Assembly (NCBI GenBank): GCA_030615855.1
Contig: JAUWYL010000002.1
Span: forward strand, 1,526 to 65,525
From: a bacterium
Lineage (GTDB): Bacteria > UBP18 > UBA7526
Direction: 5' to 3'
Length of the DNA: 64,000 nt
In this document: positions 50,183-64,000 of the stretch, piece by piece
Layout of the letters: each line of letters opens with the position of its first letter
How positions within the stretch are numbered: position 1 is the first letter of the stretch
The notes under the pieces: model-generated
Seen by the model: the letters and a program-made list of their open reading frames with translations, nothing else
The model's database searches: none
What the model was told of the DNA's origin: nothing
Program-made: the position numbers and the translations under genes

Positions 50183-50899
50183 CTATCCTTTTATTATTGG
50201 ATTCTGTTGGTCAAACTGCGTGCTTCTAATTTTTTTATTCAAATATAAAAATGAAAATAGATAAAACAAATAACTGTAAAGCGCAATCACTAAAAGGTAA
50301 AGTTTCATAGCATTAACAATGACAAATATTGTTGTTAGAAAATGAATATTTGTTCTACCATAAAGAAATAACCTCACAAACCGGCCTTTCGTTTTTAACT
50401 CCCTTTCCAGCTCAGAACTTCCATCAGGTAATTCCAATTTGGTTATAAAAAAAATAGTATCAACCAGCAGCCTTCCACTAACAGCAAACGCACAAAATAC
50501 CCATATTAAAGGTTCTGGTTTCATCCGATACAATCCAATAGATATTGCAATAAACAACAATGGATCGACAAATCTGTCAACAACAGAATCAAGCCATGCA
50601 CCATACACTGACGTTAAGGATTTCTCCTTGGCTATAAGACCATCGAGAAAATCAAATAATATTGACATATGAATACATACCAATCCGGCAAATAAATATC
50701 TCCACTCTCCTATCCCGAAAAACAACATCGCCAACATAGCAAGGATAAATCCGGCAAGTGTAATCTGATTAGGAGTTACCCTAAATTTTACAATTATACC
50801 TGAGAGCTTCTTCGTCAGCCACCAATAGGGAAGATTTGAATACTGAACTATATATGGATGAGTGTCTATAAATTTCTTGCCTTTACTTGTTACCATCAA
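50183..50899 (-). CDS. CDP-alcohol phosphotransferase family protein
   Basis: VTPNQIT and D-x2-DG-x2-A...G-x3-D-x3-D (FDFLDGLIAK..YGAWLDSVVD). Confidence 0.9.
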   Translation of the reverse strand: MMVTSKGKKFIDTHPYIVQYSNLPYWWLTKKLSGIIVKFRVTPNQITLAGFILAMLAMLFFGIGEWRYLFAGLVCIHMSILFDFLDGLIAKEKSLTSVYGAWLDSVVDRFVDPLLFIAISIGLYRMKPEPLIWVFCAFAVSGRLLVDTIFFITKLELPDGSSELERELKTKGRFVRLFLYGRTNIHFLTTIFVIVNAMKLYLLVIALYSYLFYLFSFLYLNKKIRSTQFDQQNPIIKG

Positions 50900-56015: not shown

Positions 56016-58027
56016 TTTGGACTCCCTTCACTAATTTCTATTACTTTGTATAACCTATTAGAATAGAGTATATTTAGAAACTCTTTTTGTTTCACATGAT
56101 CCATTAATATTTCGAAATACTTATTATCAACCAGTAATAGCCAATGGGTAAAATATTTTTTAGTCGAATCTGTAACCTTTCCTCCGGGAAATTTCTCTTC
56201 CAACCATTTTCCCTTATTATCCATTACACACTTGGCTTCTAAATAACGATCTCTATCTGAAATCAGAAAGGTAGCTATGCAAGACTCATGCTTTCCGCTA
56301 GCAAATTTATCACCCAACAGTACCAGACGTTTTTTGATATTGTTTCTTTGAATAAACCGAATAGCTCTAACATAGTATTCGTTCCACATAATACGTACCT
56401 TATATTCTTCATCATAGAAGTATAAATTGTTCACATCATAACACACTTCCTCAAACCAGTGGTCAAGTTCGGTCTTGGTAGAGGTAGTAATTTGATGAAA
56501 ATTGTATAAGTAATATTCAAAACCTATGAGGATCATGATTAAAACTAACCAAATATATCTAAATCGTAAATAAATAAAATGGCATACGAAATAAATCATC
56601 AAGGCTAAAAATAAGGATAAAAAAAGAAATTCAAGAAGATATGTTCGCCCTATACCACCAATAACACTAAGACTAAGCCAATTAATTATATACTTCGTGC
56701 CATAAAAATGTATGCAATAATATAAAATAGCAATAAAACTTATTCCAATGATATACCACGAAAGATGCTTACGAATAAAATTGATAAGAGAAGAATAAAA
56801 TTTCTGAATCAAGAGACACATTGCATATAAAAACAAAAGAACAAAACCAATCAGACAGATAATTTTCATAGGTTCGTAACGGCCACCCGTCGAATTAAGC
56901 TGCATTCCCCAATGATTGATAAATAAAAAAATCATGATAAAAGCTGTATTCAATTTAAATTCTCTACGAGAATCATAACCTGAGAACATAATAGGCAGAC
57001 TTAGCGCAGCGATAAAATAATATAGTGGATTGAAATGATAATAATGGGTTATTAACATAAAATTTACCGAAAGTAAGATTAGCATATAAACCAATTTCTC
57101 TTCCAATGAAAAACTTGTTTGCCCGGAAACATAAATTAAAGAAAAAATTAAAAGAGTAAATAAATAAGTGGCAATCCAGGCTCCCAAAAAATTATAAAAA
57201 TATATAGCCTGTATTACATCAAAACCAAATATACCGGGCAGTCGAAATATTTTGAAGACAACGATAATAACGGTGAGAATGGTTAAAAAGGAGGAGAGGA
57301 AAAAATTCAGATTCGCTTTCGGACGTCGGGTCAACAATAAAAATATCATAACGATATTCAAGATGGAAAGATAGATGAACATTGCTATGACAAAATTTAA
57401 TATCGGGACAAATTGTATTTTACCAAATATTGACAATAAATAAAAAACAGGGGCAAATAGCAAATAATATTTATACAATCCGCCAACATTGCTAAAATCA
57501 AAGCCATAGCCACCTTCACCAAATTTGTCAAAATAGGACCATCTAAACAACATCATTTGAGCATAATTATTTTCGTCCACATTCCCGAAAAAAGTATCTG
57601 GCTTCTCAAGTGGAATCAAAAAACCTGGAGTAAAATATAGAATGGCAAACAACAAGAGCATTATTAGCGCTAAAAAACCAATGGATGAATAAGAAAATGA
57701 TTTAATCCATTTCCAGAATATGTTCTTAACGCTTGAGGTCAATTTTTTAAACGTTGGAAATGCGAGATAGACCAAAAATGCGCTTCCCAAAAAATATAAT
57801 ATGTCACCAGAAATCATACCGATTGGAGAATCCCAGTAATATATATGATGTTCCCAGGGAATAAAAAGAGAGAAAAGAAAGGATAGGCCATACTTCCCTT
57901 GCCGATGAAGAATGGGACCGATAGCGAATATCCTAATCATAATATAGGCAAATAATAACATGAAGTTAATAATAAATGAAGCATAAAAATATGTTGAAAA
58001 AAAACTATTCTCAATCTCTTTTTTCAT
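56012..58027 (-). CDS. Multi-pass membrane protein, unknown function (GT-C-like topology)
   Basis: 671 aa, more than 10 hydrophobic helices, extracytoplasmic VDENNY motif; ATGA-type overlap with the downstream gene. Confidence 0.6.
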   Translation of the reverse strand: MKKEIENSFFSTYFYASFIINFMLLFAYIMIRIFAIGPILHRQGKYGLSFLFSLFIPWEHHIYYWDSPIGMISGDILYFLGSAFLVYLAFPTFKKLTSSVKNIFWKWIKSFSYSSIGFLALIMLLLFAILYFTPGFLIPLEKPDTFFGNVDENNYAQMMLFRWSYFDKFGEGGYGFDFSNVGGLYKYYLLFAPVFYLLSIFGKIQFVPILNFVIAMFIYLSILNIVMIFLLLTRRPKANLNFFLSSFLTILTVIIVVFKIFRLPGIFGFDVIQAIYFYNFLGAWIATYLFTLLIFSLIYVSGQTSFSLEEKLVYMLILLSVNFMLITHYYHFNPLYYFIAALSLPIMFSGYDSRREFKLNTAFIMIFLFINHWGMQLNSTGGRYEPMKIICLIGFVLLFLYAMCLLIQKFYSSLINFIRKHLSWYIIGISFIAILYYCIHFYGTKYIINWLSLSVIGGIGRTYLLEFLFLSLFLALMIYFVCHFIYLRFRYIWLVLIMILIGFEYYLYNFHQITTSTKTELDHWFEEVCYDVNNLYFYDEEYKVRIMWNEYYVRAIRFIQRNNIKKRLVLLGDKFASGKHESCIATFLISDRDRYLEAKCVMDNKGKWLEEKFPGGKVTDSTKKYFTHWLLLVDNKYFEILMDHVKQKEFLNILYSNRLYKVIEISEGSPK

Positions 58028-58151
58028 GGTTTATCTCTAAACATCTTTCTGCCTTTCTTTGGCCTGTAGTTCCACAAGAAGGCCACCAAAACACCAGCAA
58101 TAAGTGCTCCAGATACCCATAGATAGAAAGGCTTTCAATTTATGATATTTA

Positions 58152-59024
58152 CTACTTTCCAATGTTTTCTAAAATTCTCACCATACTTTTTTTGTCTATT
58201 CTTCTAGGGCCATCGTTAATCTTATTGTATCCCATAATCTTGTCTGCAATCATTTCAACGTTAAAATTCTTTATCTTTGGTGGAATAAAGGATCTCTTCA
58301 ATAATGTAACTAATTCTTCCGTTGAACCAAGATTAAACAATTCTGGTAATCCTTCAAAATCCATATATTCGACAAAATGAGGAAGTAACATTCCACAGGC
58401 AGTTCCATGGCTGACACCATATTTGATTGTGATAGGATAGGATGCAGCATGCACAACATTTGTTTTAGCTATTGCTATCGCTTGCCCAGCCAGATTTCCA
58501 GTAGTTATTAACTTGTTAATATCATTTTTGCTTAAGTGGTGACTGAGCTTATTTAAATATTTGTTAATCAAATAGATGGCTTTTTTTGAGTAGTTTTTGC
58601 TTTGCAAAGTAGCATTTTTGGACCAAAGAGATTCTATAGCATGAGACAAAGCGTCAAAAGTAGTTGACTGCCTAACACTAAAGGAGAGAGCTTTAGGCAT
58701 CCTGTAATCCATTTTTAGTACTGGCTTTTTTGTAGGGATGGATATTTTTTCTCTTCCCCAGACAGTAGCATAAGGGGTCATAGATGCTCCGGCAGCAGTT
58801 GTGGGAATTGCTATACATCTTTTATCTTTAGAAATAATTTTCGCCGCATCTATAACACTTCCTCCACCAACGCCTATAACTACATCTTTACTATTTTTTA
58901 TCTCTAATACTTCTTCAGTTGGTGGTTTTGTAATCTTTAAAAAACTTACATCTCTATATTTTTTTGAAATCAGTTTTGCATAATCCTTCGTATGCTTGCT
59001 ATGAATTATCAGAGCAGATTGCAT
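58152..59024 (-). CDS. Iron-containing alcohol dehydrogenase, candidate phosphonoacetaldehyde reductase
   Basis: GGGSVIDAAK, PTTAAGAS, DALSHAIES, HAASYP..HG; start set at ATG 59024; adjacent to ppd/pepM. Confidence 0.85.
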   Translation of the reverse strand: MQSALIIHSKHTKDYAKLISKKYRDVSFLKITKPPTEEVLEIKNSKDVVIGVGGGSVIDAAKIISKDKRCIAIPTTAAGASMTPYATVWGREKISIPTKKPVLKMDYRMPKALSFSVRQSTTFDALSHAIESLWSKNATLQSKNYSKKAIYLINKYLNKLSHHLSKNDINKLITTGNLAGQAIAIAKTNVVHAASYPITIKYGVSHGTACGMLLPHFVEYMDFEGLPELFNLGSTEELVTLLKRSFIPPKIKNFNVEMIADKIMGYNKINDGPRRIDKKSMVRILENIGK

Positions 59025-59475
59025 TTCTAAATCGCCTCTTGATTTGTTTTGGTGACAAAGGTATTCTTGGTGCATCGCCTTTTTCTTTGCTAACCTTCAG
59101 GACCACTGTATTTGGTGCAATTTTTGCAAAATTAATAACATCAGAGCAAGTTGGCTGTGCGCCAGTCGAACTATGGCAACCGTTATCTAAAATGTAATGC
59201 TTTAGATTTTTTGGATTTAACTTTTTATGCAACGCTAATGTTCCCAGAGACATAAGTGTCTCTGCATCTCCCGATATGACAATAACCTTATGCTTTGAAT
59301 TAATAGCAATTCCCAGTCCGATTCCTAAAGTGCATCCCATGCTACCTTGCACATAGAAATTTCTCGGCCTGTCTTTTACAGCATAAAGCTCCCTAGAAAT
59401 CATTCCTGTAGAAGATATGATTATCTCATCTTTTACATTCTTTACTATTTTTCTAATGGCATCAATTCGTTTCAT
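58999..59475 (-). CDS. Phosphonopyruvate decarboxylase, TPP-binding (beta/ComE-like) subunit
   Basis: TGMISRELY, FYVQGSMG, GDA..MSLG, LDNG.HSSTG.QPT. Confidence 0.88.
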   Translation of the reverse strand: MKRIDAIRKIVKNVKDEIIISSTGMISRELYAVKDRPRNFYVQGSMGCTLGIGLGIAINSKHKVIVISGDAETLMSLGTLALHKKLNPKNLKHYILDNGCHSSTGAQPTCSDVINFAKIAPNTVVLKVSKEKGDAPRIPLSPKQIKRRFRNAICSDNS

Positions 59476-59810
59476 TGTATCAGGAGTTTACAATTTTTGT
59501 ATTCTAATAGTTTTAACAACCTCTTGGTGATTTTCCCCATAAAAGCGTGATGTTTAGGTTTATTTCTAACACTGATCAATAAATCTATTTTTATATCATA
59601 CGGTTTTAATAATGAGGTTATTATATCAACCATATTTCCTAGTCCACTGTTCTGGAGAAATACAAGGGGCTTCTTCCCTACCAAATAGGCACCCACAGCT
59701 AAAGCCATAGCCTCGTCTTCCCTTGTGCAGGGAATATAGTTCTCTATTTTGTCTGTGAAATCCTTTAATCTTGAACCGGGCACTCCCACGATAAAATTAT
59801 ATTTTTTCAT
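59472..59810 (-). CDS. Phosphonopyruvate decarboxylase, alpha (ComD-like) subunit
   Basis: GVPGS.LK, REDEAMALAVGAYL, LQNSGLGN. Confidence 0.88.
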   Translation of the reverse strand: MKKYNFIVGVPGSRLKDFTDKIENYIPCTREDEAMALAVGAYLVGKKPLVFLQNSGLGNMVDIITSLLKPYDIKIDLLISVRNKPKHHAFMGKITKRLLKLLEYKNCKLLIQ

Positions 59811-61087
59811 CTTGTTCCATACCTCCGGTCAATCTCTTCCACTTCTCTAATTGGCGTTAAGTCTCTCATATCATCCAAAGTAGCAGATAATTCTTTCTCT
59901 ACAGGGTAGACAGAATCGTGTTTTTTTATAATTTTCAAGCTTTCTCTTATTGCTTTGATTTTAACCCTTTCTGTCTGGTTAGCCAGAACTATCACCGAGA
60001 ATCCCGCATTAAATAATTGTTTATTTGTAAGTTGGGGAAATTTAGTGGGAACTATAACTAATGGAATCTTTGATTTCCAATACTTGGGTATTTCCAAAGC
60101 CTCTTTACCAGTCGATTCCCTACTATGGGTTAACACCATATCTGCCCCGGACTTAACATAATGCTCTGCTCTTTTAATAGCCTCAGCCATTCCATAACCT
60201 CTTATCAACGCTTCTGTTCTTGCTACTATTACAAAGTCCTTCGTTTTTTGGGCATCTTTTCCAACTCTAATTTTTGCCCCATGTTCTTCCATAGACAACA
60301 ATGGTATTTTCCCGCCCCACAGTGAATTTATTTTGGGAAAAATATTATCTTCCACACAAATCCCCGAGCATCCTATTTTTTCAAATTCTTTTACGGTTCT
60401 TATGAAATTATGAAGCCCTCCATATCCATTGTCCACGTCTACCAAAACCGGAAGGCTGGTAGCGTCAACAATTGTCTTGGCTGCGTTTAACATTTCAGTC
60501 ATAGTGATACATCCATTATCCGCCAAGCCCAATCTTGCCGATGCTTCAAATCCGGAAACCCAGATTCCATCAAATTCTGCTTCTTCTATCAACTTAGCAG
60601 TTATCGCATCACCGGCCGAAACTATCACCAGCTTTTTCTTCTTTTCTAATAAGTAGTTAAGTCTTTTTGTTCTTCTTATTTCCTGTAGCAGTTTTGTAGT
60701 TGTAATATATGGATAACATTCAACCTGTACAACTCTACATAATTTCTGTTCTTCTGCTTTTTTATATAAAGGTGGAAGCCAGTCATCTCCATGAACAGCT
60801 ATTGATACTTTATATTTCTTCAGATTATCAAACATTGTTGGCTCTCTTAAATCCATGCAGTCTTCCACGACTTTATCAACTTCCCTTATAGACTCTATTA
60901 TCTTTTTTCTGTCTTCAAAAGGTATGAGTGGTTCTCTTTTGTATCTTTTGATGACATCATCTGGATGTAAACCAATAATCAAGAAATCCCCTAATTTCTT
61001 CGCCTTTTTTATAAGTTCTAAGTGGCCGCGATGAAATAAATCACCGCCCATAGTTGCATATACCACTTTTTTATTTTTCATTTTCAT
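59807..61087 (-). CDS. pepM: Cytidylyltransferase-phosphoenolpyruvate mutase fusion
   Basis: N-terminal DLFHRGH (HxGH) cytidylyltransferase; C-terminal DGIWVSG, DVDNGYG, EDNIFPKINSL, ARTEAL, HSR, VPTK. Confidence 0.9.
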   Translation of the reverse strand: MKMKNKKVVYATMGGDLFHRGHLELIKKAKKLGDFLIIGLHPDDVIKRYKREPLIPFEDRKKIIESIREVDKVVEDCMDLREPTMFDNLKKYKVSIAVHGDDWLPPLYKKAEEQKLCRVVQVECYPYITTTKLLQEIRRTKRLNYLLEKKKKLVIVSAGDAITAKLIEEAEFDGIWVSGFEASARLGLADNGCITMTEMLNAAKTIVDATSLPVLVDVDNGYGGLHNFIRTVKEFEKIGCSGICVEDNIFPKINSLWGGKIPLLSMEEHGAKIRVGKDAQKTKDFVIVARTEALIRGYGMAEAIKRAEHYVKSGADMVLTHSRESTGKEALEIPKYWKSKIPLVIVPTKFPQLTNKQLFNAGFSVIVLANQTERVKIKAIRESLKIIKKHDSVYPVEKELSATLDDMRDLTPIREVEEIDRRYGTR

Positions 61088-61095
61088 TTCCTCCT

Positions 61096-62220
61096 TTAGT
61101 TGACTTCTTCATTAGTTCTACCTCCAAAATCCTGAATTAGCAAAGCAGCAATATCTTTATTCTCACTTATTTGCGAAGCATTAAATCTACTCCCATAAGC
61201 AATGAGGGGAATCTTTTGTTCGTGGATTGAACCGTGGGATCTAATATTTACCTCTTCAAAATCCTTCCTTAATCTTCCAAAGACTGTATTCTTATCAGCT
61301 AAAACAAAAATATCTCCTATTCTTTGAGGAAACAAATTATATCTTTGGCTGGCCTCCTGTCGGGAAATCACTTCCTCTACGCCCTCAAGATGCAATAGGA
61401 TGGCTATGGCTTGATCAAAATCGGACTTCTTCTCAAGATAGATATAAGCAGCACCCCCCATATTCTGATGATGGATAATATAGCGGTCCTTAATAATAGG
61501 AATTACTTCACATTGAATTTCCTGATCTGCCAAAATTCTACCAAGATCCAATGCTTTCGTCTTATTAGACATTCCGTGATCTGCGGTAATAATAGTTTCT
61601 ATATTAGAATCAATATTTACTATTTTGCCTATTAACCTATCGATTTCTTGTAGATAATACTCAGATTGTGCATCCCCGGGTTTAAACTTATGCATAACAT
61701 AATCCGTAGTACTAAGATACATCAAATCAATGAATTTTTTAGATAGAAGCTCACAGGCGGCCTTCAAGAGCCATAGATCTGCTTCTATTGAATAGATCGA
61801 AGGAGGAGGTCCAATTTTATCAATAATCCACTTTAAAGGTCTTTCTACTGACATAGAGATACTTGTTCCTCTATTTAAAAGTATTCTTAATTTATCTTTT
61901 GAGGTCAGGAGAGCAGAACTTCTCCCCACCGCTTTCCCTTTTTCAAAAATAGTCTCAGTCAGAATATAGTCCGCTGATTCCATATAAGTCCCTTTACCAG
62001 TTTTGGGATTCAAAAAATAATTTGCCGTAATACCGTGGATTTTGGGATAGGTACCGGTCACCAATGAGACATTATTTATATTGGTCACCGTAGGCACCAT
62101 AGCCCGAATTTCTTTATAAAATCCTTCTTTTGCCAGGCGGTCCAGATTAGGAGTAGGGCTCTTCTCAATATACTCTGGACTACATCCATCCAGGCAGATA
62201 AAAAGTAACTTCTTATTCAC
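61096..62220 (-). CDS. Phosphonoacetate hydrolase-like alkaline-phosphatase-superfamily enzyme
   Basis: LDGC, PTVTNINNVSLVTG, YLSTTDYVMH, TADHGM, RSHG match the PhnA pattern. Confidence 0.78.
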   Translation of the reverse strand: MNKKLLFICLDGCSPEYIEKSPTPNLDRLAKEGFYKEIRAMVPTVTNINNVSLVTGTYPKIHGITANYFLNPKTGKGTYMESADYILTETIFEKGKAVGRSSALLTSKDKLRILLNRGTSISMSVERPLKWIIDKIGPPPSIYSIEADLWLLKAACELLSKKFIDLMYLSTTDYVMHKFKPGDAQSEYYLQEIDRLIGKIVNIDSNIETIITADHGMSNKTKALDLGRILADQEIQCEVIPIIKDRYIIHHQNMGGAAYIYLEKKSDFDQAIAILLHLEGVEEVISRQEASQRYNLFPQRIGDIFVLADKNTVFGRLRKDFEEVNIRSHGSIHEQKIPLIAYGSRFNASQISENKDIAALLIQDFGGRTNEEVN

Positions 62221-62309
62221 TCTCTCCAGTTTCTCCTAAAATTAGTTATGCCATCCGCTATGGGATGCATACGTAGCGCCCTTCCCGCAGCAACAATTAT
62301 TGCCTTCAT
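62217..62309 (-). pseudogene. N-terminal fragment of an NTP-transferase
   Basis: After GAGGAGG: MKAIIVAAGRALRMHPIADGITNFRRNWRE*; the first 16 aa match the MKAIILAAG.G.R..P nucleotidyltransferase start. Confidence 0.72.
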
Positions 62310-62417
62310 CTATCCTCCTCTTTGTGGTAATTTGGCAGACAAAGCATTATGGGCGCCAACAAGAATAATTGGTTCTCTTCTTTTAAGTAATCTGCGGAAT
62401 GCAGCTGCCTTAGTCAT
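62310..62417 (-). pseudogene. N-terminal fragment of a second PEP mutase/isocitrate-lyase-family gene
   Basis: After GGGAG: MTKAAAFRRLLKRREPIILVGAHNALSAKLPQRGG*; FRRLL..GAHNALSAKL is the PepM-family N-terminus. Confidence 0.75.
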
Positions 62418-62446
62418 TTCATTCTCCCTCATTCTTTAAGGTTTGC

Positions 62447-63382
62447 TTACTTCTGAGCGGCTACTAAAATCATGGGGTTAAAAAGCTCGTATCTAGCAAT
62501 TTCTCTTGCTAACTTTTTTAAAATTGGCAACCTGAGATGCACAAATGGTAGGTAACATCTAAAACTCTCCACCTCTGTCTTGTTAAAACCCGCCTCTTTG
62601 AATAAATTCCTGATCCGCCGTTTAGTAAAAGAAAGCTCGTAACCAAATTTCATGTGCCTACCTCTTAGTAGCTTAATGTGGACAAACTCGGCAATCTGCC
62701 TTAAAACTGGAAATTCCGGAATATTTCCCCAAATTTGTCTATAGGTCAAGGCACCCAAATTTAGTTGGGGGACGGTATTAAAACAAATTCCTTCTCTTAT
62801 TAACACTCGGTACATCTCATTTATTGACCTTTTAGTATTTCTAAAATGCTCTATAACTCCTCCCCCGTAGATTAAATCTATGCTATTTGCTTTAAGTGGT
62901 ATTTCGTTCATATCTCCCAAAATTAGGAGGTAATTCTTAATCCCTTCCTCTTCAAACATTTTTTTGGCAATCCTTAAAGCAGATAAAGAAAAATCTATTC
63001 CTATAACATTCAACCCTCTTTTTGCCAGCTCTTGACCTAAAAACATTGGGCCGCATCCGATCTCTAAATAGACATCTCCCTGCTGAAAGTGATAGTATCT
63101 AAATATTTGATCAAGAGTATCTCTTAGTTCTTTTCTATCGTGCTCCTTTTTCTCCTCCTCATAAGTTTTACTTCTCAGGCTCTCTCTATATAACTTTTTC
63201 CACTTCTCAAGAGATAACTTTATGTCTTCAGGCAGAACATCTGGTAACATACCTATTATGTTCTTCTCTATCACCGAATAGCTTCTACGACAACTTCTGC
63301 AATAAAAGTCATTCTCTCTAAGAAGTAAACTACCTTTGCATTCTGGGCAACGGATATGATCTAACAAATTTTTATCTTTCAT
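62447..63382 (-). CDS. Class I SAM-dependent methyltransferase with N-terminal Trm112-like zinc finger
   Basis: CPECKG..CRSC, YLEIGCG, GVIEHF. Confidence 0.88.
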   Translation of the reverse strand: MKDKNLLDHIRCPECKGSLLLRENDFYCRSCRRSYSVIEKNIIGMLPDVLPEDIKLSLEKWKKLYRESLRSKTYEEEKKEHDRKELRDTLDQIFRYYHFQQGDVYLEIGCGPMFLGQELAKRGLNVIGIDFSLSALRIAKKMFEEEGIKNYLLILGDMNEIPLKANSIDLIYGGGVIEHFRNTKRSINEMYRVLIREGICFNTVPQLNLGALTYRQIWGNIPEFPVLRQIAEFVHIKLLRGRHMKFGYELSFTKRRIRNLFKEAGFNKTEVESFRCYLPFVHLRLPILKKLAREIARYELFNPMILVAAQK

Positions 63383-63384
63383 TT

Positions 63385-64000
63385 TTAATCTTCACAAAGC
63401 TTAAACTCTTCTAATGTCTTTCTTAGGGCTTTAGTAAAGACCTTTTCCCAGGTATGATTTGAAGCCAGTTTAATGGCATTCGTTCTCATCTCCTGATGGA
63501 GTCGATCATTGGTCAATAATTTAACAATTGCTTCGCTGACCTCCCTCTTATTATAATTCACTAATAAACCTGCCCTTTCTTTCTTAATTTCATAAGCAAT
63601 CCGTGGCACGGGCGTAATTATTACCGGCAGACCACAGGCCATATAAGCTTTGGGTTTGTTGACATCAGAGTAAAAACTCCAGCTTTCAGGGTCTGGAACA
63701 TAGGGAGCTACAGCCACTGCACATCTGGCCATCATTTTCTCCAGCTTAGAGTAATCTTCTATATAACCGGTAAAAGAGACTTTATCAGAAATTTTCAATT
63801 CGACAACTCTTTGTTTCAAAAGATTTTCTAACGGCCCGCTGCCTATGATAACTAATCTGGCTTTCTGAACTTTTCGACAAACCTCAGGAAAAGCCTTAAT
63901 TAACATCATTACCCCTTGTTTTTTTCGTAAATGACCGACAAAAACTATATCATAACGGTTAATTTTCTCAATGGGAAGCCTTTCAATGCGGTCAAAGTTG
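63385..64000 (-). CDS. GT4-family glycosyltransferase (start lies beyond the window end)
   Basis: Frame stays open past the ORF-track start to the window end (..YDIVFVGHLRKKQGVMML..); IGSGP, KPKAYMACGLPV. Confidence 0.88.
   Translation of the reverse strand, partial: NFDRIERLPIEKINRYDIVFVGHLRKKQGVMMLIKAFPEVCRKVQKARLVIIGSGPLENLLKQRVVELKISDKVSFTGYIEDYSKLEKMMARCAVAVAPYVPDPESWSFYSDVNKPKAYMACGLPVIITPVPRIAYEIKKERAGLLVNYNKREVSEAIVKLLTNDRLHQEMRTNAIKLASNHTWEKVFTKALRKTLEEFKLCED

Follow-up and report, generated by a model that had tools for sequence, protein, structure and literature searches.

A short-form PhnA-like gene recurs beside phosphonate-biosynthesis genes and probably has an auxiliary role

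We analysed a gene whose product resembles phosphonoacetate hydrolase, PhnA, in a bacterium of the GTDB lineage UBP18 (UBA7526; assembly GCA_030615855.1). The gene lies in a stretch of 64,000 nucleotides of contig JAUWYL010000002.1 (positions 1,526 to 65,525), here called the window, directly upstream of genes for the synthesis of 2-hydroxyethylphosphonate (HEP). Reading of the sequence confirmed the coordinates assigned by a first-pass annotation, with 374 codons on the minus strand (Table 1). The open reading frame (ORF) starts with GTG, with GGAG ahead of it, and ends with TAA at 61098-61096. On inspection, no signal peptide or hydrophobic N-terminus was found, and the first beta-strand bears the metal ligand D11. 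The next co-oriented ORF encodes a fusion of a cytidylyltransferase with phosphoenolpyruvate (PEP) mutase, PepM. The previously reported distance of 8 nt to pepM holds for its first ATG (61087), with AGGAGG inside the gap; because homologues of the fusion protein are 424 amino acids long, translation probably starts at the second ATG (61081), which makes the gap 14 nt. Scanning positions 58000-63500 for promoters and terminators gave a number of sites not above that in shuffled sequence.

The product belongs, by profile, sequence and model comparison, to the PhnA branch of the alkaline phosphatase superfamily. It matches PF01663 in Pfam with 129 bits, and its best NCBIfam model is TIGR02335 (PhnA), with 243.6 bits, below the curated equivalog cut-off of 407.55. 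This low score is a property of the whole short-form family (about 361 amino acids), whose members reach 202-251 bits, including 202-229 bits for those in operons for 2-aminoethylphosphonate (AEP) catabolism, as against 707 bits for a proteobacterial PhnA. In a sequence search of the PDB, the PhnA structures from Pseudomonas fluorescens 23F (1EI6) and Sinorhizobium meliloti (3SZY/3T02) aligned over residues 6-341 with E of about 1e-53, while chains of nucleotide pyrophosphatases/phosphodiesterases (NPPs) reached E 1e-10 at best, with alignments largely limited to the first 70-220 residues. With an AlphaFold2 model of high confidence (pLDDT 92.9), the best six Foldseek matches were PhnA chains (TM-score 0.87-0.90; the top one 1EI6, 0.89), followed by NPPs (0.68-0.75). 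The NPPs (Xanthomonas NPP, ENPP1-7) share the Pfam family, the bimetal site and the Thr nucleophile with the window protein, and their similarity to it is confined to about 80-220 N-terminal residues; they are mostly secreted or ecto-enzymes. The PhnA-like identity proposed earlier is thus borne out, since PhnA is closer than the NPPs both by sequence (E 1e-53 against 1e-10) and by fold (TM-score 0.89 against 0.72-0.75). The protein is not the generic nucleotide pyrophosphatase that had been considered as the alternative, its nearest solved relatives on both measures being two PhnAs. In the Pfam scan there was no match to PF00884, the family of sulfatase-type transferases such as EptA and LtaS, and no membrane anchor was seen.

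The predicted catalytic set consists of D11, T46 (the nucleophile), K108, K110, D173, H177, D214, H215 and H329. T46 aligns with Thr64 of 1EI6, and D11, D173, H177, D214, H215 and H329 fall on ligand positions of the two-zinc site, while K108 and K110, in the motif TSKDKL, align with TAKDKL of 1EI6 and 3SZY (the Lys126/Lys128 equivalents). Work by Kim et al. in 2011 is said to form part of the basis for the residue roles in PhnA. All these residues are invariant in the family alignment (A1) and in PhnAs from catabolic contexts. More broadly, the window protein keeps 66 of the 74 alignment columns that show no variation among bona fide PhnAs or those from catabolic contexts, and the eight that differ all lie at family-variable positions. 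In PhnA the Lys126/Lys128 pair is held to stabilise the carbanion-like or aci-carboxylate leaving group during cleavage of the C-P bond (review). With the characterised PhnAs (EC 3.11.1.2) the window protein shares the fold (at 30-34% identity), the Thr nucleophile, all seven metal ligands and the Lys pair. It differs in being some 30-40 residues shorter, with four internal deletions and a shorter C-terminus, and in belonging to a separate, mostly non-proteobacterial short-form family. Specificity-determining positions were considered as a marker of a biosynthetic role and rejected: 11 positions separate five sequences from biosynthetic operons (the window protein, L001, P0005, P0033 and P0061) from catabolic ones, none of them a known catalytic residue, and Gly77, present instead of Glu in every protein from a biosynthetic context, is also frequent in the family as a whole (42/165).

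The association with phosphonate biosynthesis is not unique to this contig. In two blind scans that together covered 160 loci of the PhnA-like family, three loci from two lineages adjoined pepM or ppd (phosphonopyruvate decarboxylase), whereas a rough chance expectation is about 0.04, so that the adjacency exceeds chance. Targeted look-ups beyond these scans added further lineages. In total, at least five separate lineages have a short-form PhnA-like gene next to ppd or pepM, most often in the order PepM, Ppd, PhnA-like, Fe-dependent alcohol dehydrogenase. This recurrence also supports the operon link between the PhnA-like gene and pepM that had been proposed from the window by itself. Ppd adjoins the PhnA-like gene in L193, L194, L195, L197 and L114, and a PepM-Ppd pair does so in the window, L001, L031 and L047. 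More specifically, in L193, L194 and L195 the gene sits between ppd and the alcohol dehydrogenase gene of PepM operons, with stop and start codons that touch or overlap; clade C (L197) has the order PpdA, PpdB, PhnA-like, NeuB, and in L114 PpdB is followed by the PhnA-like protein. The Dehalococcoidia loci L031 and L047 carry two methyltransferases, the PhnA-like gene, a PepM above its cut-off, Ppd alpha and beta and an AEP transaminase; the ORFs scanned in this operon included no nucleotidyltransferase. In L031 (7762-18089) the mini-cluster is followed by DUF4011 and a replication-relaxation/MarR protein, which suggests that it travelled with a mobile element. No phosphonate genes were found near the members of the L196 clade. 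A predicted complex of PpdA, PpdB and the window protein gained no support (score 0.00), an outcome that weighs neither for nor against such a complex, and none of the longer proteins searched was a fusion of a PhnA-like domain to PepM or Ppd.

We placed the window protein among its relatives with a maximum-likelihood tree of 90 sequences rooted on proteobacterial PhnAs. Here the window protein falls in the separate short-form family, and the sequences from catabolic contexts form one clade (100/100). This clade is nested in a group of 40 sequences (88/96) whose other branches are the window clade, clades E2, C and D, and the uncharacterised clade B; the branching order within the group is not resolved. 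In a FastTree analysis the proteins of L193, L194 and L195 are, with weak support, the nearest to the window clade. L114 is a deep branch and L031/L047 belong to the Dehalococcoidia clade; the Ppd/PepM association is therefore spread widely over the tree and may predate recruitment to catabolism. Among the matches listed from a search of 5.8 billion proteins, the closest to the window protein is P0002 (87% identical), and the next listed are at most 54% identical. The gene of P0002 (L001) stands directly upstream of the same cassette as in the window, with otherwise different neighbours.

Table 1. Genes and relic reading frames at the locus (window coordinates).
Feature	Position	Strand	Description and basis
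PhnA-like gene, short-form, alkaline-phosphatase superfamily	61096..62220	-	374 aa, predicted cytoplasmic; sequence, profiles, AlphaFold2 model
Fom1-like cytidylyltransferase-PEP mutase fusion	59807..61087	-	first gene of the putative mobile four-gene HEP cassette; profiles, homologues
Phosphonopyruvate decarboxylase alpha, short form	59472..59810	-	112 aa; profiles, length kept in cassette relatives
Phosphonopyruvate decarboxylase beta, short form	58999..59475	-	158 aa; profiles, cassette relatives
Fe-dependent alcohol dehydrogenase, PhpC/FomC type	58152..59075	-	predicted phosphonoacetaldehyde to HEP; profiles, relatives
CDP-alcohol phosphatidyltransferase	50183..50899	-	candidate for transfer of the phosphonate from CMP-HEP to an acceptor
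Relic ORF, N-terminus of an older PepM (PepM-NTP_transf_3 fusion type)	62310..62417	-	35 aa; L194 match, weak Pfam match
Relic ORF, resembles the start of a nucleotidyltransferase domain	62217..62309	-	30 aa (MKAIIVAAG...); suggested by a weak match

The four genes downstream of the PhnA-like gene appear to form a conserved, mobile HEP cassette. The fusion protein combines a PF01467 cytidylyltransferase with a PEP mutase domain (PF13714, 181.7 bits; TIGR02320, 252.5 bits, which does not reach the cut-off of 319.55). Its PepM motif is EDN....NS in place of EDK....NS, and motif-based surveys that demand EDK would miss it. Many homologues of the fusion PepM exist at 75-93% identity, some of them assigned by name to Omnitrophota or Elusimicrobia. 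All four genes recur with their odd lengths in different glycan clusters, with PepM 85-92% identical: the short Ppd subunits (112 and 158 amino acids, compared with about 161-167 and 187-188 in other operons) and the short alcohol dehydrogenase (290-307 amino acids) are kept in all the cassette relatives (L189, L190 and L191). The coordinates in Table 1 give the longest ORF of the alcohol dehydrogenase; relatives are called at 290-299 amino acids, and translation probably begins a few codons downstream of 59075.

Around these genes lies a surface-glycan or lipid island with GT2 and GT4 glycosyltransferases, an LPG-synthase-type membrane protein and the CDP-alcohol phosphatidyltransferase, a family also found after the cassette or operon of L189 and L195. 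Two B12-radical-SAM (S-adenosylmethionine) enzymes and several methyltransferases lie in the same island, which was not found in the five genomes of the same family that were searched (53-85% complete). A methyltransferase upstream of the PhnA-like gene was considered as a conserved partner and rejected, since the methyltransferases have only generic similarity of 25-30% to one another over the SAM-binding region.

Immediately upstream of three close relatives of the cassette (PepM 85-92% identical) there is no PhnA-like gene, a separate candidate enzyme exists for the transfer step, and dozens of clusters of cassette PepM at 75% identity or more contrast with a single close homologue of the PhnA-like protein; for these reasons the PhnA-like enzyme is accessory to the cassette. 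Two relic ORFs (Table 1) are located between the upstream methyltransferase and the PhnA-like gene. The product of 62310-62417 shares 15/15 identical residues (PIILVGAHNALSAKL) with the N-terminus of the PepM-nucleotidyltransferase fusion protein of L194 and matches Pfam PEP_mutase weakly over profile positions 1-26 (E 0.036), and that of 62217-62309 has a weak local match (score 31) to KAIVLAAG of the same L194 fusion and no match in Pfam. The stop of 62310-62417 abuts the start of 62217-62309, whose TGA stop shares bases with the GTG start codon of the PhnA-like gene; these chained mini-ORFs may still provide translational coupling to it. The relics suggest that an older operon of PepM-nucleotidyltransferase, Ppd, PhnA-like and alcohol dehydrogenase genes was overwritten by the mobile cassette, after whose arrival the old PepM, nucleotidyltransferase and Ppd genes would have decayed while the PhnA-like gene was kept. 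Comparison of the window with L001 gave dN/dS of 0.17 for the PhnA-like gene (dS 0.37) and 0.07 for PepM (dS 0.44). The PhnA-like gene is under purifying selection, and the values fit its co-inheritance with the cassette under such selection.

The nearest large clade of relatives offers a second context. PhnA-like proteins of Desulfobacterota (L003, L004, L007, L008, L010 and L091; L003:4252-14178) are 50-52% identical to the window protein, of the same length class and with the same catalytic residues, and their genes stand in AEP-catabolic operons, in contrast to the window gene with PepM, Ppd and the Fe-dependent alcohol dehydrogenase. These operons encode PhnW (TIGR03301, 429.8 bits), PbfA (712.8 bits), a LysR regulator, a HAD protein, a NudE-like NUDIX protein and two citrate-synthase-like proteins. 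Their aldehyde dehydrogenase is of the acylating type, is nearest to SauS (498.6 bits) and is not PhnY. The statement in the first-pass annotation that PhnA usually accompanies phnW/phnY needs qualifying, since in these nearest catabolic relatives a SauS-like acylating enzyme takes the place of PhnY. The window itself has glycan genes besides PepM, Ppd and the dehydrogenase, and no phnW, phnY or LysR gene alongside. The HAD neighbour was considered as a hidden PhnX and rejected, as it was not PhnX-like in a PDB sequence search, which leaves the PhnA-like protein as the sole candidate C-P hydrolase in the operons of this clade. Their content suggests a CoA-dependent route from phosphonoacetyl-CoA to acetyl-CoA and phosphate, and points to such C-P cleavage in anaerobes; in the searchable literature, phosphonoacetyl-CoA figures only as a predicted in-vitro product.

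What would a PhnA-type enzyme do in a producer operon? In the pathway expected from the cassette, PEP would be converted through phosphonopyruvate and phosphonoacetaldehyde (PnAA) to HEP and CMP-HEP and then to an envelope glycan or lipid, with no step for the PhnA-like protein. The role of this PhnA-family enzyme is probably auxiliary. PnAA is the metabolite common to all phosphonate contexts of the family, being made by Ppd, PhnW or PbfA, and every other steady neighbour of the family makes it too (Ppd or PepM-Ppd, and PhnW with PbfA in the catabolic clade). The source genome (1.375 Mb, 93.6% complete) encodes an acylating aldehyde dehydrogenase of the EutE/PduP type, and PhnY was not found in it. 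From this shared metabolite and the presence of the acylating dehydrogenase without PhnY, we infer the substrate and tentatively favour, at close to an even chance but short of it, a C-P hydrolase that would clear oxidised, off-pathway products of PnAA and return the phosphate. The cytoplasmic two-metal enzyme with its Thr nucleophile would cleave the C-P bond of a small beta-carbonyl phosphonate. Co-expressed with the pathway, it would destroy derivatives of PnAA, the reactive product of Ppd, which may be phosphonoacetate or phosphonoacetyl-CoA formed by acylating aldehyde dehydrogenases, and possibly surplus aldehyde too, with phosphate and acetate or acetyl-CoA as products. Three roles had been offered at the outset, namely recycling of a shunt product, editing of the pathway and phosphonate transfer. 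Clearing of a shunt product fits best, with the C-P catalytic set intact and no PhnA-like gene immediately upstream of three cassette relatives, while the transferase role is weakened by the separate CDP-alcohol phosphatidyltransferase and by the L031/L047 operon, whose scanned ORFs include no nucleotidyltransferase.

Several points weigh against a clean-up C-P hydrolase. The TIGR02335 scores of the short-form family are far under the cut-off, and the activity is predicted from sequence and fold. A dedicated source of phosphonoacetate was not found in the source genome, so the substrate must be a hypothetical side product. With a C-P hydrolase next to Ppd, the pathway might be drained, and the gene order of clade E2 (Ppd, PhnA-like, alcohol dehydrogenase) could equally mean an on-pathway step. 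Finally, most family members, from Dehalococcoidia, Acidobacteriota and Poribacteria, have housekeeping neighbours and no phosphonate genes nearby, and a true pepM was found in only about 7/50 of those genomes, so that a genome-wide link between the family and pepM was rejected as weak.

It is possible, though rather doubtful, that the short-form PhnA-like proteins are a separate class whose substrate is phosphonoacetyl-CoA or phosphonoacetaldehyde and not free phosphonoacetate. They would then serve as a repair enzyme or relief valve in biosynthesis, possibly the ancestral function, and as the C-P step of an anaerobic catabolic route in which PhnW/PbfA and a SauS-like enzyme act before the PhnA-like one.

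The fold and metal site common to nucleotide pyrophosphatases/phosphodiesterases raise a different reading, in which the protein hydrolyses CMP-HEP or a phosphonate ester, or transfers a phosphonyl group from CMP-HEP through a phosphonyl-Thr. In the window, L001, L193, L194 and L195 its partner is a PepM-nucleotidyltransferase fusion, a NudE-like NUDIX and a nucleotidase-like HAD gene flank the gene in the catabolic clade, and transient cytidylylation followed by hydrolysis is known in fosfomycin biosynthesis (Rice et al. 2019, PMC6697681). There, in Streptomyces, FomD (DUF402) hydrolyses CMP-(S)-2-hydroxypropylphosphonate beside Fom1, Fom2 and FomC; the window neighbours are Fom1-, Fom2- and FomC-like, and a hydrolase acting after cytidylylation would have an analogous role. 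FomD has no homology to the window protein, however, and DUF402 was not matched in the Pfam scan of the window proteins; unlike the antibiotic pathway, the window cluster, with its CDP-alcohol transferase, looks like one for envelope decoration. Fusion to a nucleotidyltransferase is in any case found in about 60% of all PEP mutases (Ppm; Rice et al. 2019, PMC6697681), so the co-occurrence says little. The protein is far closer to PhnA than to NPPs and keeps the PhnA-specific Lys pair. As L031/L047 have no nucleotidyltransferase among the scanned ORFs, a CMP-phosphonate substrate cannot be general, and the cassette relatives appear to make and use CMP-HEP with no PhnA-like gene. With a CDP-alcohol phosphatidyltransferase available, the transfer step needs no PhnA-like protein. 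Overall, we regard action on a CMP-phosphonate or phosphonate ester as unlikely.

Direct hydrolysis of PnAA or phosphonopyruvate is less probable again. Here the enzyme would be a relief valve for toxic aldehyde, or part of a route in which the Fe-dependent dehydrogenase reduces acetaldehyde. The position of the gene between ppd and adh in L193-L195 agrees with this, as does the occurrence of PnAA in all phosphonate contexts; on chemical grounds an aldehyde enolate should be a better leaving group than an aci-carboxylate, and in the catabolic clade the pathway would likewise be complete if hydrolysis of PnAA came before an acylating acetaldehyde dehydrogenase step. Such hydrolysis would, however, be a futile drain on PEP in a 1.4-Mb genome. 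The catabolic dehydrogenase is nearest to SauS (498.6 bits), which is sulfoacetaldehyde-specific, and not to acetaldehyde dehydrogenases, suggesting that PnAA is oxidised before the C-P bond is cleaved, and PhnA of P. fluorescens degrades only phosphonoacetate and, less well, 2-phosphonopropionate (review). The known phosphonoacetaldehyde hydrolase, PhnX, is a HAD protein of unrelated fold with a Schiff-base mechanism, so that any analogy would be functional only.

A stand-alone phosphonoacetate hydrolase for phosphorus scavenging, left beside the cassette by recombination, is the least credible reading: the island is accessory (not found in the same-family genomes searched), recent rearrangement is evident from the relic ORFs, many members of the family are found singly amid housekeeping genes and phnA of P. 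fluorescens is also independent of phnW/phnY, but operon-tight ppd/pepM adjacency recurs in at least five lineages (rough chance expectation about 0.04 events), the PhnA-like gene and the cassette are kept as a unit in two different surroundings (the window and L001), and no phosphonate uptake system was recognised in the source genome. A phosphonate ABC importer was considered there and rejected: the sole PhnD-like protein (PF12974, 264 bits; G000:C6, L192:8199-9176, minus strand) is encoded in a type II secretion or pilus cluster, where a GspF-like and a GspG-like gene flank it and none of the neighbours encodes an ABC permease or ATPase.

PhnA has been described as an enzyme of catabolism, acting with PhnW and PhnY or alone (review), and in one study of marine genomes phosphonate production and catabolism were almost mutually exclusive (Acker et al., bioRxiv 2020.11.04.368217). 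Inventories of Ppm gene neighbourhoods make no mention of PhnA or PF01663 (Li and Horsman 2022; Rice et al. 2019, PMC6697681), and the literature searched yielded no account of pepM operons with PhnA-like genes. Surveys use phnA as a marker of phosphonate consumers, whereas here a gene of the PhnA type is an integral and selected part of producer operons in several phyla; counting short-form phnA as a consumer marker could mislabel producers. If the enzyme does remove a toxic by-product of PnAA, it would represent a metabolite-repair step in phosphonate biosynthesis, of a kind that we did not find described, and would be a useful helper gene for heterologous phosphonate production.

Some further relatives of the family have unusual architectures or surroundings. 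P0122 and P0123 (690-700 amino acids) join a PhnA-like part to an unannotated C-terminal half of about 320 amino acids. A haloarchaeal short-form PhnA-like gene lies on a plasmid of Halomarina sp. BND7 (L088:5989-7065), near genes for MmgE/PrpD, acyl-CoA dehydrogenase, MaoC dehydratase, TcuA and a member of the isocitrate lyase/PEP mutase family, a context that looks like organic-acid catabolism rather than known phosphonate metabolism. P0124 (789 amino acids) is a natural PhnW-PhnA fusion in which both halves score above their NCBIfam cut-offs.

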